Shown here piece by piece: positions 1 to 39,087 of a stretch of DNA of 39,560 nucleotides; the stretch's first letter is position 1; every line of letters begins with the position of its first letter. Source of the DNA: a virus. Lineage: Duplodnaviria; Heunggongvirae; Uroviricota; Caudoviricetes. The notes under the pieces are model-generated. The model had not been told where the DNA came from, did not search any database, and saw nothing but the letters and a program-made list of their open reading frames with translations. The position numbers and the translations under genes are program-made. The stretch lies in IMG/VR virus record IMGVR_UViG_2548876940_000011, one strand, 5' to 3'.

Positions 1-199
1 TCTGCCGCCTGCCGGGCTGACTCCGATGCCTCCCCTGCTGAAGTGTCAGCATTTGCCGCGCTCGCTTCCGCCTGACTGACTGATATGCCGGCATTCCTCG
101 CGGACGTCTCTGCTTCTCCGGCATTCTTCTTCGCCTCCTCTGCGTGACGCGCCACCTCTTCCACCATCAGTTCAAAACGACGCAGTGCCTCCGGACGGA
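1..199 (-). pseudogene. stf: Distal part of a lambdoid side-tail-fibre (Stf-like) gene, separated from its 5-prime part by the prophage insertion; continues beyond the window start
   Basis: Minus-strand frame open across 1..197, reading RPEALRRFELMVEEVARHAEEAKKNAGEAETSARNAGISVSQAEASAANADTSAGEASESARQAA; joins in frame with the fragment at 39083..39385 once the insertion and one repeat copy are removed. Confidence 0.7.
195..199. repeat. Left copy of 5-bp target-site duplication ACGGA
   Basis: ACGGA immediately precedes the element end TGTAACC at 200 and recurs at 39083..39087; removing the element and one copy restores ...GAT GAC GTC CGT CCG GAG... (EDDVRPE) in the stf frame. Confidence 0.6.
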
Positions 200-380
200 T
201 GTAACCAGGTGAATCATTTGATACCGACAAGGGTTTTAGTGAAAGGAGGTGAAATCACCTGTAAGATGCTGAAATAAAACAGGTGATGTATACTTCGGAC
301 GGAAAACTCTTTTTGATACCGACTGCTCAACAAATAGTCAAAAGATCAAAAAACGGCGACACATTTGATACTGCTAATTT
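200..380. repeat. Left end (attL-like) with three candidate transposase-binding repeats
   Basis: TTTGATACCGAC at about 217..228 and 312..323, TTTGATACTGC at about 364..374; the same motif occurs inverted at the right end. Confidence 0.6.
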
Positions 381-555
381 ACCCTTAAAATCTTCTTCAA
401 AACATCTTCAAACTGCCAAAATGCTCACATAATCGATCTAACTATAATCAGTATGATAATCATCATGAATTACTATTCAATAGCGTGATTATCTTGGGAT
501 GAGTCATATGATCTCTATATGTATTTACAGCACCACCTCATGATAGCGATGGCGC

Positions 556-1167
556 TTAACCAACAACATTTTTCTTTACTGTCACTGCCCCTGATTCCTG
601 GGTGGCGTTATTGCTCGAGTTGTACTTCTCAATAACGCGCAAAATCTCTTTGTCTGTTTCTTCACTTCCCGCCATTCCTATCTTTATTGCATTTTTTAGT
701 ACGGGACGTAATGGCAAGGCATCAATGATGCTTTCTACCGCATCCTGGCTGATTGTAGATGTATTCATTGCTGCCAGCCTGACAAGGTTGTTAGTACCTT
801 CTCGCCTGATGAATGTAAGGATTAATTGCTTCTCTTGGGGGCTTAGAGAGCTAAGCGCCTGATCAATACCCGAACCCGAATCGCAATTTTTTTCGATTTT
901 TCCGCATTCATCTTCGTTCTTGCCTGTGGCCAACCATTCGAGTGAACAATTACAGGCTTTAGCTATTAAGGCCAGTTTATCCAAAGGAGGGAAGTTTTTC
1001 CCCTTCCTGTAATTTCTTACTGTGGCTTCAGATAGTCCACAAAGGGTCGCCAGTTCGACGTTTGTCATGTTTCCCATAGCCATAGCTAAGCGTTCTGAAA
1101 ATCGGTTTATTCCTTCCATATCAATAAACCGTTCCGCACTGGATACGGTTTTTTCTGCCTTATCCAT
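556..1167 (-). CDS. Prophage repressor, XRE-type helix-turn-helix (occupies the Mu c position)
   Basis: 203 aa; HTH-like segment NVELATLCGLSEATVRNYRKGKNFPPLDKLALIAKACNCSLEWL; divergent from ner-A-B; AT-rich like Mu c. Confidence 0.75.
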   Translation of the reverse strand: MDKAEKTVSSAERFIDMEGINRFSERLAMAMGNMTNVELATLCGLSEATVRNYRKGKNFPPLDKLALIAKACNCSLEWLATGKNEDECGKIEKNCDSGSGIDQALSSLSPQEKQLILTFIRREGTNNLVRLAAMNTSTISQDAVESIIDALPLRPVLKNAIKIGMAGSEETDKEILRVIEKYNSSNNATQESGAVTVKKNVVG

Positions 1168-1323
1168 ATAACCCCCTATAAAACAAAGAAATTATCGGCA
1201 TCGCATTTAATTTCGATATGCTCGCAAAAAACTGTTTATATCGAATTATTTTGCGATTATGATTTACCTAAATCGATAACCGGTTTTGATTATCGGTTCA
1301 GGTAAACATGAGAGGATCACACA
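1168..1323. promoter_or_regulatory. Divergent early control region between repressor and ner (operators and early/repressor promoters expected)
   Basis: 156-bp AT-rich intergenic region with recurring ATCGATA / TTATCGG-like elements between divergent genes; functional assignment is by analogy to the Mu O1-O3 region. Confidence 0.5.
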
Positions 1324-1590
1324 ATGAGGGTATCCAGACAAGCATCGAATAATTTGTTTGTTCGAGAGGGGTGTGACTGGTCTGCTAAAGCGGTATATGC
1401 AGCCCTTGAAAACAAAGGCACAGACCTCCCTGAACTGGAAAGGGAGTTAGGATTAAAAAGCGGATCAATGCGCAATGTGTTTTACCGCCAGTGCCGTAAA
1501 TACGAAGCCGCCATCGCCGAAAAAATAGGGGTTGAACCTGCTGTAATCTGGCCCAGCAGATACCAGGTGGACGCCAGAGAAGTGGCTTGA
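1324..1590 (+). CDS. ner: Ner-like DNA-binding early regulator (Ner/Nlp family)
   Basis: 88 aa; C-terminal EPAVIWPSRYQ matches the Ner family signature; lies directly upstream of the transposase. Confidence 0.85.
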   Translation: MRVSRQASNNLFVREGCDWSAKAVYAALENKGTDLPELERELGLKSGSMRNVFYRQCRKYEAAIAEKIGVEPAVIWPSRYQVDAREVA

Positions 1591-1600
1591 TGGGGGATGT

Positions 1601-37930: not shown

Positions 37931-38016
37931 GATCAAACTCATAAATTTTCGCTAATGACATTTCGTGTTATTTGTTGTATCAATTAAATAAATCAAATCG
38001 ATCGTTTTTGCCGATC
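37931..38016 (+). promoter_or_regulatory. GATC-containing region upstream of com (candidate methylation-sensitive mom control region)
   Basis: Three GATC sites at about 37931, 38000 and 38013 in the AT-rich stretch before com; Mu mom control uses clustered Dam sites. Confidence 0.4.
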
Positions 38017-38063
38017 GATTGAGTGATAAAGATATCAACAACAAAGCAGGAGGTTATGCGGCC

Positions 38064-38264
38064 ATGTATCGAAACATACGGTGCCGACATTGTAACAAGC
38101 TACTGGCACGAGCCAGCTTCAGTTATCTGGAAGTTAAATGTCCGCGCTGTAAAACCCTCAATCAAATCACATCTCAGAGCGCCACAGAGCACCCCACATA
38201 CACAAGGAAATCCTGTCGTGGGGAACAGAAAGCAAGTTACATCCCGTATCATCAGCACGCCTGA
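38064..38264 (+). CDS. com: Com, zinc-finger translational activator of mom
   Basis: ORF 38019..38264; ATG at 38064 10 nt after AGGAGG gives [34 protein letters not shown], a CxxC...CxxC finger like recalled Mu Com; overlaps the next ORF. Confidence 0.8.
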
Positions 38265-38955
38265 ACTTATTCACTATAACGACAATATCGTCGGTTATGG
38301 CTCCCGTGAGTTACGGGTTGAGACAATAAGTTGCTGGCTGGCCCGGCTGGTCGTCGTCAATAAACATTACAGCCATCGTTTCGTAAATAATTCCTACCTT
38401 CATCTGGGCATATTTTCAGAACGGGAGCTGGTTGGCGTAATGCAATGGGGTTATGCCCTTAATCCAAACAATGGTGCACGCGTCGTAACTGGCACGCAGA
38501 ACCGCGAATATATGGAGCTTAACCGGTTATGGCTGCATGACTGTATGCCGAGAAACTCCGAATCAAGGGCAATCAGTTACGCGCTCAAACTAATCAGACA
38601 ACTTTATCCGCAGGTGCAGTGGGTTCAGTCGTTTGCAGATGAGCGTTGTGGCTGTCTTGGTGTCGTGTACCAGGCAAGCAATTTTGATTATGTAGGCAGT
38701 CATGAAACAACATTCTATGAACTTGATGGCGAGTGGTATCACGAGATTTGCAAGAATGCAATCAAACGAGGAGGACAGCGAGGTGAACATCTGCGGGCTA
38801 ATATCGACAGAGCCAGTGTTCATAAATTCCGTCAGTTTCGTTACATCCGGTTTCTGGACAAGAGAGCCAGAAAACGCCTTAACACAAAGCTATTCAAAGT
38901 CCAGCCTTACCCAAAACCACAAACAGTTAAAACTGGTTTGAAAGAGAGTGAATGA
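38218..38955 (+). CDS. mom: Mom-like DNA-modification protein (start uncertain)
   Basis: ORF 38023..38955 overlaps com in another frame; in-frame GTG at 38218 after AAGGAAA gives about 245 aa, near the length of Mu Mom; last gene before the right end, as in Mu. Confidence 0.7.
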
Positions 38956-38989
38956 ACGCTTAAAAACTCATTCTAAAACTCAAAAGAAA

Positions 38990-39082
38990 AGCGCCGATTT
39001 AGTATCAAATAAGTTGCGTATCGGCGTTTTTCAGCGGTATCAAATGAAATGCAAATCGGTATCAAAAAAATCGCCGCGCTAT
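38990..39082. repeat. Right end (attR-like) with three inverted candidate transposase-binding repeats
   Basis: Reverse complements TTTGATACT, TTTGATACCGC and TTTGATACCGA at about 39001..39013, 39035..39047 and 39056..39066, mirroring the left end. Confidence 0.6.
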
Positions 39083-39087
39083 ACGGA
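39083..39087. repeat. Right copy of 5-bp target-site duplication ACGGA
   Basis: ACGGA immediately follows the element end and matches 195..199. Confidence 0.6.

Follow-up and report, generated by a model that had tools for sequence, protein, structure and literature searches.

The window, i.e., the 39,560-nucleotide stretch of DNA which was analysed, carries an almost complete Mu-like prophage of the Sp18 type. With a probability of about 0.93 this temperate phage entered, by DDE transposition, a lambda-stf-like gene which directly follows lom among the late genes of a lambdoid E. coli prophage. The insertion is real but ordinary; Shiga-toxin-producing E. coli has provided earlier examples of such events. 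The target-site duplication comprises 4 bp, CGGA, and the element ends with TG and TA. This reading of the ends is well supported.

The interrupted stf-like gene

The window corresponds to an entire contig of a draft assembly, AIAU01000154.1, in which 199 bp and 477 bp of flanking DNA are visible. The flanks contain the following features.

1–199, minus strand: distal part of the stf-like gene, ...PEALRRFELMVEEVARHAEEAKK..., running off the contig end (joined flanks in frame; no break between it and the right flank in 696 genomes)
39084–39379, minus strand: stf-like gene, proximal part with residues 1-99 (ORF reading; Pfam match)
39396–39417, minus strand: intrinsic-terminator-like hairpin in the lom-stf interval, then a T run (sequence)
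39444–39560, minus strand: 3' end of lom (Ail/Lom), ...GIGYKF and stop (stop codon 39444-39446; PF06316 match)

From the ATG at 39379 a minus-strand open reading frame reads MAVKISGVLKDG...GAMSEDDVR, and once 38,888 bp are taken out the frame continues as PEALRRFELMVEEVARHAEE... through the left flank. The Stf allele is cut after residue 99. In the contig as it stands the truncated frame consists of the 99 native residues followed by IARRFF, which is read from the Mu-like end, and stops at 39062. In Pfam the truncated product falls into the family phage_tail_N (PF08400), and Ail_Lom (PF06316) is the family of the gene upstream. A phage_tail_N domain at a position just downstream of lom identifies a side tail fibre of the Lambda Stf type. 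The likeness to the Lambda lom-stf region extends to the lom 3' end, the terminator and the stf start, and the order gpJ-lom-stf is present in the best-matching genome. The difference is that the stf of the window is an EHEC-type allele with 437 aa when intact, as in strain E2863.

When aligned to uninterrupted stf alleles, the joined flanks (672 nt) give one contiguous match with at least 80% query coverage in 696 complete E. coli genomes. Among the matches listed, the best hits have 100% coverage and 98.7% identity and are annotated as 'Ail/Lom family' and 'prophage tail fiber N-terminal domain-containing protein'. In E2863 the empty site reads cctccggacggacgtcatcc, with a single ACGGA. Thus, the original prediction of a prophage inside an stf-like gene, with a lom-like gene end and a terminator just upstream, is borne out. 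The flank sequence is multi-copy in prophages, occurring at a median of 2 and up to 14 places per genome. Since the window is a whole draft contig with such flanks, we can only infer, from similarity, the resident lambdoid prophage as host; an intact prophage and a remnant are both possible. The junction itself is absent from all 5,426 complete E. coli genomes searched, where the best matches to the left and right ends stop at the ends of the element, and therefore the stf insertion has no independent confirmation.

A complete draft contig which ends in multi-copy lom/stf sequence invites the suspicion of an assembly chimera, i.e., a Mu-like prophage joined to repeated prophage sequence with no real stf insertion. 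This is exceedingly improbable because both junctions lie exactly at the known termini of the element and the two flanks abut at one position within the same gene, with the usual 4-bp duplication and the frame restored. The idea that the flanks are host sequence carried along with Mu DNA in virions was set aside, the contig being part of a draft assembly of a bacterium. Even flanks of such an origin would testify to an stf insertion in the donor cell.

According to the integration we favour, transposase A together with the MuB-type ATPase would have inserted the phage into the stf-like gene, and a 4-bp staggered cut would have given rise to the CGGA duplication around the element. With stf split after residue 99 the late operon would yield a stub of 105 aa at most. 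The receptor-binding C-terminal part of Stf would be 38.9 kb away, without a start codon. Because of this short stub and the separated, startless C-terminal part, the host prophage probably has an inactive side tail fibre. The practical consequence here would be the loss of the side tail fibre in one lambdoid prophage. Laboratory lambda lacks a functional Stf, and J-dependent adsorption would not need it.

Possibly nothing still working was inactivated, namely if the target was a decayed lom-stf remnant. We consider this unlikely: all that is visible of the target (the lom end, the terminator, the stf start and 164 codons of stf) is intact and 98.7% identical to alleles which are annotated as complete genes and adjoin gpJ, although the visible flank amounts to only 676 bp and defective lambdoid prophages are common in EHEC (PMC2669165).

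Ends of the element and the target-site duplication

The sequence ACGGA is present at 195-199 and at 39083-39087, and the original prediction, which covers 195-39087, took it as a 5-bp duplication. The Mu-like prophage stands, but the 5-bp reading does not. Comparison with independent insertions places the true element at 200-39083, TGTAACC...GCGCTATA.

196–199, no strand: target-site duplication CGGA, left copy (8/8 insertions and cho empty site)
200–39083, plus strand: Mu-like transposable prophage of the Sp18 type, 38,884 bp (other genomes match from 200 to 39083)
200–375, plus strand: left end; three TTTGATAC repeats of the transposase-binding type in direct orientation at 217, 312 and 364 (outermost starts 17 nt from the terminus)
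39002–39083, minus strand: right end with three inverted TTTGATAC repeats at 39002, 39037 and 39059 and the terminal dinucleotide TA (outermost ends 17 nt from the terminus)
39084–39087, no strand: target-site duplication CGGA, right copy (8/8 insertions and cho empty site)

Independent insertions of the same ends are located, among other sites, in bglJ, cho, gspM, sorM, gpJ and a prophage head-closure gene, and near gabP. The same element at many unrelated chromosomal sites, each with a short target duplication, is characteristic of a transposable phage. Duplications of 4 bp directly adjoin TGTAACC...GCGCTATA in all eight independent insertions that allowed the left and right flanks to be paired. 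Strain 2010C-3347 has an insertion which was left out of this count; its flanks, TGCC and CAAC, are unrelated and belong to different genes, and it is probably rearranged. Matches in OkiPb01714 (from 186) and OkiPb01696 (to 39102) were considered as the same site and rejected as chance extensions into gpJ. The right end reads ...CTATA-3' in each of nine copies examined and the left end is TG. The termini are, consequently, TG...TA instead of the 5'-TG...CA-3' of transposable phages, and the duplication lacks the 5-bp length of phage Mu proper.

A Mu-style insertion of an element spanning 200-39082 with a 5-bp duplication, ACGGA, would agree with the literal repeat, with the single copy in the empty site, and with the 5-bp duplications made by Mu itself (PMC8705779). 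This reading is very improbable and already contradicted. All other insertion sites, irrespective of their flanks, conserve the A at 39083 as the last base of the element. Seven other insertions have a base other than A at the fifth position of the left flank, whereas four bases always match. Rebuilding the cho empty site with a 4-bp duplication reproduces the intact cho gene exactly (300/300 identity, no gap). Further, the spacing of 17 nt from the outermost TTTGATAC is equal at both termini only if 39083 is the last position. This A is thus part of the element, and its match to the target base ahead of CGGA is a coincidence. Of the comparison with the empty site, then, the single ACGGA in E2863 holds, yet the duplicated length is 4 bp, not 5.

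The repeat TTTGATAC has seven matches in the window compared to 0.93 expected, and six of the seven are located at the two ends. They are inverted and symmetric, as in transposable phages, and are predicted transposase-binding sites.

TG-CA termini are found in Mu and B3-like phages, with the TA-TA of Leptospira as an exception (PMC8705779). A search of open-access text returned nothing relevant on 4-bp duplications in Mu-like phages, a weak negative. To our knowledge, the duplications reported for published transposable phages are 5 or 6 bp long. That the widespread Sp18-type elements break the TG...CA and 5-bp rule of Mu matters for the automatic delimiting of prophages, and it affects the use of duplication length as a signature of transposition.

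Gene content and kinship with Sp18 and Mu

The genes of the element are arranged as follows.

556–1167, minus strand: repressor, CI/HTH_3 type (domain match; immunity region unlike Sakai Sp18)
1324–1590, plus strand: Ner-like early regulator, HTH_35 (domain match)
1601–3691, plus strand: transposase A, 696 aa, with Mu N-terminal DNA-binding domain, rve-like DDE core and Mu-transpos_C (domain matches)
3767–4699, plus strand: MuB-type AAA+ target-DNA activator, 48% identical to MuB (domain match and alignment)
6052–6582, plus strand: Gam-like host-nuclease inhibitor (homology)
10263–11268, plus strand: GemA-like gene (10263-10775) and Mor late-transcription activator (10846-11268) (homology)
11340–12505, plus strand: lysis genes, lysozyme (11340-11840) and Rz/Rz1 (LysC) region (homology)
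13321–21573, plus strand: head module, Gp27-like gene first (homology), with the next six
14161–15825, plus strand: large terminase
15825–17414, plus strand: Mu-type portal (Portal_Mu)
17398–18729, plus strand: Mu F (Phage_Mu_F)
18851–19324, plus strand: G
19502–20626, plus strand: protease I (Mu-like_Pro)
20626–21573, plus strand: major head protein T (Mu-like_gpT)
23228–32903, plus strand: contractile tail and baseplate, with sheath, tube, tape measure, DNA-circulation protein and homologues of gpP, gp45, gp46, gp47 and gp48
32903–33814, plus strand: tail-fibre gene, 303 aa (phrog_1833 tail fibre protein; aligned with Sp18-type relatives)
33849–34421, minus strand: tail-fibre assembly gene, inverted, left from the invertible segment (Pfam Caudo_TAP; alignment with relatives)
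34522–34562, plus strand: remnant of a gin-type invertase, last ~10 codons, ..SILCRYVPA and stop (alignment with relatives)
34675–36729, plus strand: SASA (sialate O-acetylesterase-type) / DUF6645 accessory gene, 684 aa (domain matches)
38064–38955, plus strand: DNA-modification module, com (~38064-38264) and mom (38218-38955) (Pfam Mom E 1.6e-77; synteny with annotated relatives)

Near the left end, downstream of the divergent repressor/ner pair, a transposase gene adjoins that of a MuB-type ATPase, the arrangement of a transposable phage. The Pfam matches in this pair are Mu-transpos_C, HTH_Tnp_Mu_1, Phage-MuB_C and AAA_22, and transposase A matches the phrog_310 transposase with an E of 3.5e-209. 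The virion module is Mu-like (portal, F, protease and gpT families, sheath, tube, Baseplate_J/gp45-48). Together with com/mom and ends found at many sites, the early genes, the Mu-type head and the contractile tail confirm that the element is a transposable Mu-like prophage, as had been predicted.

An invertible fibre segment with a Gin-family invertase, typical of the Sp18 type, is lost in the window. Relatives carry a recombinase gene of 561-573 nt at the gin position (an invertase in Sakai, Z1835 and AST198); compared to them, the window has a deletion of the remaining gin sequence and of the alternative fibre tip. Because both were lost, the host-range switch of this prophage is presumably locked. 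Apart from this the Mu-like prophage looks coding-intact.

Of the element in the window, 80.5% aligns with 88% identity to Sp18 of E. coli O157:H7 Sakai, also Mu-like, and the terminal sequences are identical. The two further share the gene order and the 4-bp duplication, which for Sp18 is TAAA in sorM. They differ in the immunity region (window 290-1766 has no match in Sp18), in mosaic segments at window 8833-9503, 9763-10289, 26919-28543, 34362-36104 and 36754-37968, in the DNA invertase, which Sp18 retains, and in location, since Sp18 resides in sorM and not in a prophage. Sp18 has been described as intact and packaged (PMC2669165).

Insertion of such phages into prophages has precedents. 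In STEC genomes of clonal complex 119, 6/10 Sp18-like phages were inside mobile elements (PMC10132054). The GenBank entries LC727881 and LC727895 are Stx phages carrying Sp18-like inserts. To the LC727881 insert the left half matches with 92.9% identity over 87% of its length. As in the window, these are Sp18-type elements within a lambdoid prophage, and the transposase is 93.4% identical; the host gene (stf in the window) and the strain are different. Further Sp18-type inserts were found in the prophage genes gpJ (OkiPb01696) and head closure (Z1835). Sp18-type phages hop into STEC prophages and disrupt genes, which contributes to prophage decay and mosaicism; the window is one more example.

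With Mu the element shares repressor/ner/A/B, Gam, GemA, Mor, lysis, portal/F/G/I/T, a contractile tail and com-mom; both also have three transposase sites at either end and insert quasi-randomly. They differ in that the right terminus is TA where Mu has CA, the duplication is 4 bp compared to 5 bp, and the repressor is of the CI type. The MuB homologue is 48% identical. Transposase A is distant from MuA with only 22% identity (E 8e-14). It is closer to transposases of Pseudomonas VW-6B (45%), Klebsiella Kp4852-3 (42%) and the D3112/DMS3 group (~29%). A PDB sequence search with transposase A did not find the MuA structure and had retroviral integrase cores as best matches; an NCBIfam search returned only sub-threshold matches to IS481/IS3. 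We are somewhat inclined to regard Sp18-type phages as a mechanistically distinct transposable lineage and not as 'E. coli Mu relatives'. Two of their features are perhaps undescribed, viz. a transposase with an integrase-like core acting on a TA-3' end with a 4-bp stagger, and a tRNA-shaped RNA.

A tRNA-like gene between F and G

18731–18811, minus strand: conserved tRNA-like gene, antisense, between F and G (Rfam tRNA model 31.0 bits; orthologues; covariation)

The acceptor stem of the predicted RNA comprises 8 bp, and its D and T arms are canonical. In most copies the -1:73 pair is G:C, which is also the case in tRNA-His. In place of an anticodon arm there is a short hairpin, whose loop has 4 nt in the window and 3-5 nt across all lineages. 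Thus, it does not form the cloverleaf with a 7-nt anticodon loop which characterizes a tRNA, and only the acceptor, D and T arms contribute to its score in the Rfam tRNA model. A promoter-like site for this gene is located at 18849-18820. Mu has no room for such a gene, since its F overlaps G.

ARAGORN reported no tRNA in the window, and for this element elsewhere either none or 'tRNA-???'. A whole-window Rfam run at the gathering threshold gave no match; the element was detected only with relaxed Rfam filters on a small region. An open-access literature search, a weak negative restricted to such text, found nothing relevant on a tRNA-like gene in Mu-like phages. A G-protein scan of genome contigs yielded two loci only, and a scan of viral contigs supplied enough diversity. 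Covariation strongly supports the tRNA-like structure, and the conservation of this predicted RNA fold is well supported. Annotation pipelines label the conserved gene merely as 'tRNA-OTHER'.

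A lambdoid side-tail-fibre gene interrupted by a Mu-like prophage

Each end of the window is a short stretch that, on the minus strand, reads as lambdoid prophage late region.

39444-39446, minus strand: stop codon of an Ail/Lom-family gene, the 3' end of which lies at the right end of the window
39417-39396, minus strand: hairpin followed by a T run, between the lom end and the stf-like ORF
39379, minus strand: start of the stf-like ORF, encoding MAVKISGVLKDGTGKPVENC..., with a phage_tail_N domain
194 down to 1, minus strand: distal stf-like fragment, the same frame resumed as PEALRRFELMVEEVARHAEE...

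After residue 99 (..GAMSEDDVR) the stf-like ORF enters foreign sequence and meets a stop six codons on. The 38.9-kb block between the stf fragments is uniform in character: every gene reads as Mu-like phage, and the reading frames of all major element genes checked are intact.

Gene content of the Mu-like element
Early genes: CI-type repressor, divergent Ner-like gene, 696-aa transposase (Mu N- and C-terminal domains), MuB-type ATPase, Gam, GemA, Mor
Lysis genes: lysozyme among them
Head genes: large terminase, Mu-type portal, F, G, protease I, major head protein T
Tail genes: sheath, tube, tape measure, baseplate gp44-48 homologues, tail fibre, tail-fibre assembly gene
Right-end genes: SASA/DUF6645 accessory gene, then com and mom

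The empty site was reconstructed by joining bases 1-194 to 39083-39560 (672 nt) and searched against 5,426 complete E. coli genomes. In 696 of these the joined flanks are a single contiguous place; the best matches span all 672 nt at 98.7% identity, with lom and 'prophage tail fiber N-terminal domain-containing protein' as their annotation. Strain E2863 carries the gene intact: the uninterrupted stf encodes 437 aa, the order is gpJ-lom-stf and the site reads cctccggacggacgtcatcc. Thus the two flanks belong together. The original prediction, a Mu-like prophage within an stf-like gene, flanks forming one frame once the element is removed, and a lom-like gene end with a terminator just upstream, is borne out on all these points by gene content, independently defined ends and contiguous flanks, the frame continuing through the left flank.

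The host gene would now give at most a 105-aa stub, and the distal part, 38.9 kb off, appears to have no start codon. Lambda forms plaques without Stf, and common laboratory lambda carries an stf frameshift; therefore the host prophage need not be dead from this loss alone. The host prophage is recognised from the similarity of the two flanks and may be intact or a remnant. The window is the entire draft contig AIAU01000154.1 of GCA_000446445.2 (39,560 bp). The contig presumably ends where it does because the flanks are multi-copy lambdoid late-region sequence, EHEC-type genomes having a median of 2 places each and a maximum of 14.

Exact ends and target duplication

When each junction was searched, Mu-like matches started at window 200 and stopped at window 39083. 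In other strains the element ends adjoin unlike genes, i.e., bglJ, cho, gspM, glrR, betT, siiEA and several prophage genes; therefore the element is mobile and its ends are defined independently of the window. The window's own junction was found in none of the 5,426 complete E. coli genomes, and thus this insertion is private to the source strain or lineage.

Insertion sites and 4-bp repeats of seven other copies
AST198: in gspM; CGGG
DLI.5a: in bglJ; GTAC
HCP4S3_I4: in cho; AGAG
Z1835: in a prophage head-closure gene; CACC
Sakai Sp18 (the Mu-like prophage of O157:H7 Sakai): in sorM; TAAA
OkiPb01696: in gpJ; GGTG
88.0502: adjoining gabP; CACG

In all seven the right terminus reads ...GCGCTATA, the four bases past it equal the four bases before TGTAACC, and the fifth base is mismatched. 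With the window included, a 4-bp duplication is seen in eight of eight insertions whose two flanks could be paired. The empty cho site, when rebuilt with a 4-bp duplication, matches intact cho genes at 300/300 positions, gapless. Further, the motif TTTGATAC, for which 0.93 matches are expected in the whole window, occurs in three copies per end in inverted orientation, and a distance of 17 nt between outermost copy and terminus holds at both ends only if the last base is 39083. From the repeats, the cho rebuild and the 17-nt symmetry one must conclude that the element is 200-39083 with termini TG...TA. The target duplication is CGGA, at 196-199 and 39084-39087. A 5-bp duplication, ACGGA, had been proposed. 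These five bases do stand literally on both sides, but the true duplication is 4 bp; the apparent fifth arises because CGGA is by chance preceded by A in the target.

These data also bear on the possibility that the contig is a chimeric assembly joining a Mu-like prophage to repeated prophage sequence. Both junctions coincide with the element termini to the base, and the two flanks abut at a single point, where the duplication has the correct length; this makes a chimera very unlikely. By analogy with established Mu biology, insertion of the mobile element would have proceeded with A protein bound to three sites per end and cutting the 3' ends, which would then be joined to target phosphates four bases apart, the target being delivered by B protein and the gaps filled by repair. 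In strain 2010C-3347 (NZ_CP034806.1) the copy is bordered by TGCC on one side and CAAC on the other, each within a different interrupted gene (a DUF5682 gene, an Ig-like domain gene). Such unmatched flanks suggest that the site was rearranged once the element was in place, or that two copies mediated a rearrangement; this copy is left out of the duplication count.

The insertion into stf is one more case of an already known kind of event and as such not new. Sp18 is known from the description of the Sakai genome, and its packaging has been shown (PMC2669165); in O157 Mu-like prophages were noted at strain-specific sites (PMC7430833). Among closed genomes of clonal complex 119 STEC (Shiga-toxin-producing E. 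coli), six of ten Sp18-like phages lay within mobile elements, and several Stx phages carry Sp18-like inserts (PMC10132054). GenBank records likewise annotate Mu-like inserts in Stx phages. We found further copies inside gpJ, head-closure, terminase small subunit, portal and P2-type capsid genes.

Two features deserve a specialist's second look: the departure from canonical ends and duplication length, and the tRNA-like gene discussed below. Target duplications are given as 5 bp for Mu and 6 bp for B3, and TG-CA ends as common to all Mu-like and B3-like phages, the exception being some Leptospira prophages with TA-TA (PMC8705779). In contrast to this rule, Sp18-type elements combine TG...TA with 4 bp; no report of a 4-bp duplication in a Mu-like phage was found in open-access text. 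An isolated phage, Yersinia vB_YpM_5 (MT374853.1), has a transposase gene of about 81% nucleotide identity and the same TTTGATAC end repeats. Judging from the 17-nt spacing only, it appears to have TA at both ends, with about 87 bp of presumably host DNA assembled between them.

Relatives and mosaic structure

Sequence comparison places the element in the Sp18 type, originally found in O157:H7 Sakai: it aligns with Sp18 over 80.5% of its length at 88% identity, and the termini are identical. Its left half is 92.9% identical over 87% of its length to an 'inserted Bacteriophage Mu-like phage' in the Stx2c phage LC727881. Compared with Sp18 the element is a mosaic, the immunity region 290-1766 and several other segments being unmatched. 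For region 290-1766 (repressor, operator region, ner) other E. coli copies give nucleotide matches but Sakai Sp18 gives none; hence more than one immunity type exists among Sp18-type phages. Segment 9724-10289 is absent from Sp18, Z1835 and AST198 and may be a moron. It holds a minus-strand ORF of 136 aa (9788-10198), opposite to the early operon, which belongs to phrog_585 (unknown function) and has no Pfam match.

The B protein is 48% identical to MuB, the transposase (1601-3691) only 22% identical to MuA. In a sequence search against solved structures the transposase matched retroviral integrase cores and not MuA; by sequence the MuA structure is a poorer match to its catalytic core than are retroviral integrase and IS481/IS3-type cores. 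The nearest transposases among isolated phages are those of Pseudomonas VW-6B (45%), Klebsiella Kp4852-3 (42%) and the D3112/DMS3 group (about 29%).

Relative to AST198, the stretch from the inverted tail-fibre assembly gene to the accessory esterase gene (34378-34562) is shorter by about 850 bp net. Both a gin-type invertase, except for its last ~10 codons (34522-34562), and the alternative fibre tip are deleted, whereas relatives retain a 561-573-nt recombinase gene at this position. Therefore this copy is unable to switch its fibre, and host-range inversion is locked. The adjacent accessory protein (34675-36729, 684 aa) combines a sialate O-acetylesterase-type SASA domain with DUF6645 and presumably resembles the NanS-p esterases of EHEC prophages; its gene is conserved between fibre module and mom in Sp18-type phages.

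A tRNA-like gene between F and G

In related prophages PGAP annotates a 'tRNA-OTHER' between F and G.

18849-18820, minus strand: promoter-like site, TTGCCT-18-TAAAAT, preceding the tRNA-like gene
18731-18811, minus strand: conserved tRNA-like gene in the gap between the F-like and G-like head genes, antisense to the late genes

With the Rfam tRNA model, 18731-18810 on the minus strand reaches 31.0 bits against a gathering score of 29; base 18811 was added so that the paired -1 position is included. The match spans the acceptor arm and canonical D and T arms, and a 6-bp hairpin with a 4-nt loop replaces the anticodon arm. ARAGORN reported no normal tRNA in any of the tRNA-like sequences. In phage Mu, by contrast, the F and G genes overlap and leave no room for such an element. 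The element recurs, with position and strand unchanged, in an Edwardsiella prophage (G protein 60% identical) and in several IMG/VR lineages (G proteins 52-61% identical); it is absent in two lineages compared.

Across 13 distinct sequences every cell (100%) of the 8-bp acceptor stem, the -1:73 pair included, is paired, and seven of its eight pairs show compensatory changes; the T stem is likewise 100% paired, with such changes in two of its five pairs, which makes nine of 13 pairs together. Slid controls pair in only 26-54% of cells. The central hairpin varies in sequence and length, its short loop being kept. In both stems G-U pairs are present and A-C mismatches are not, an indication that the functional strand is the minus strand. 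Nothing on a tRNA-like gene of Mu-like phages was found in the searchable literature. One possibility is that the RNA serves as substrate or decoy for an enzyme recognising acceptor and T arms.
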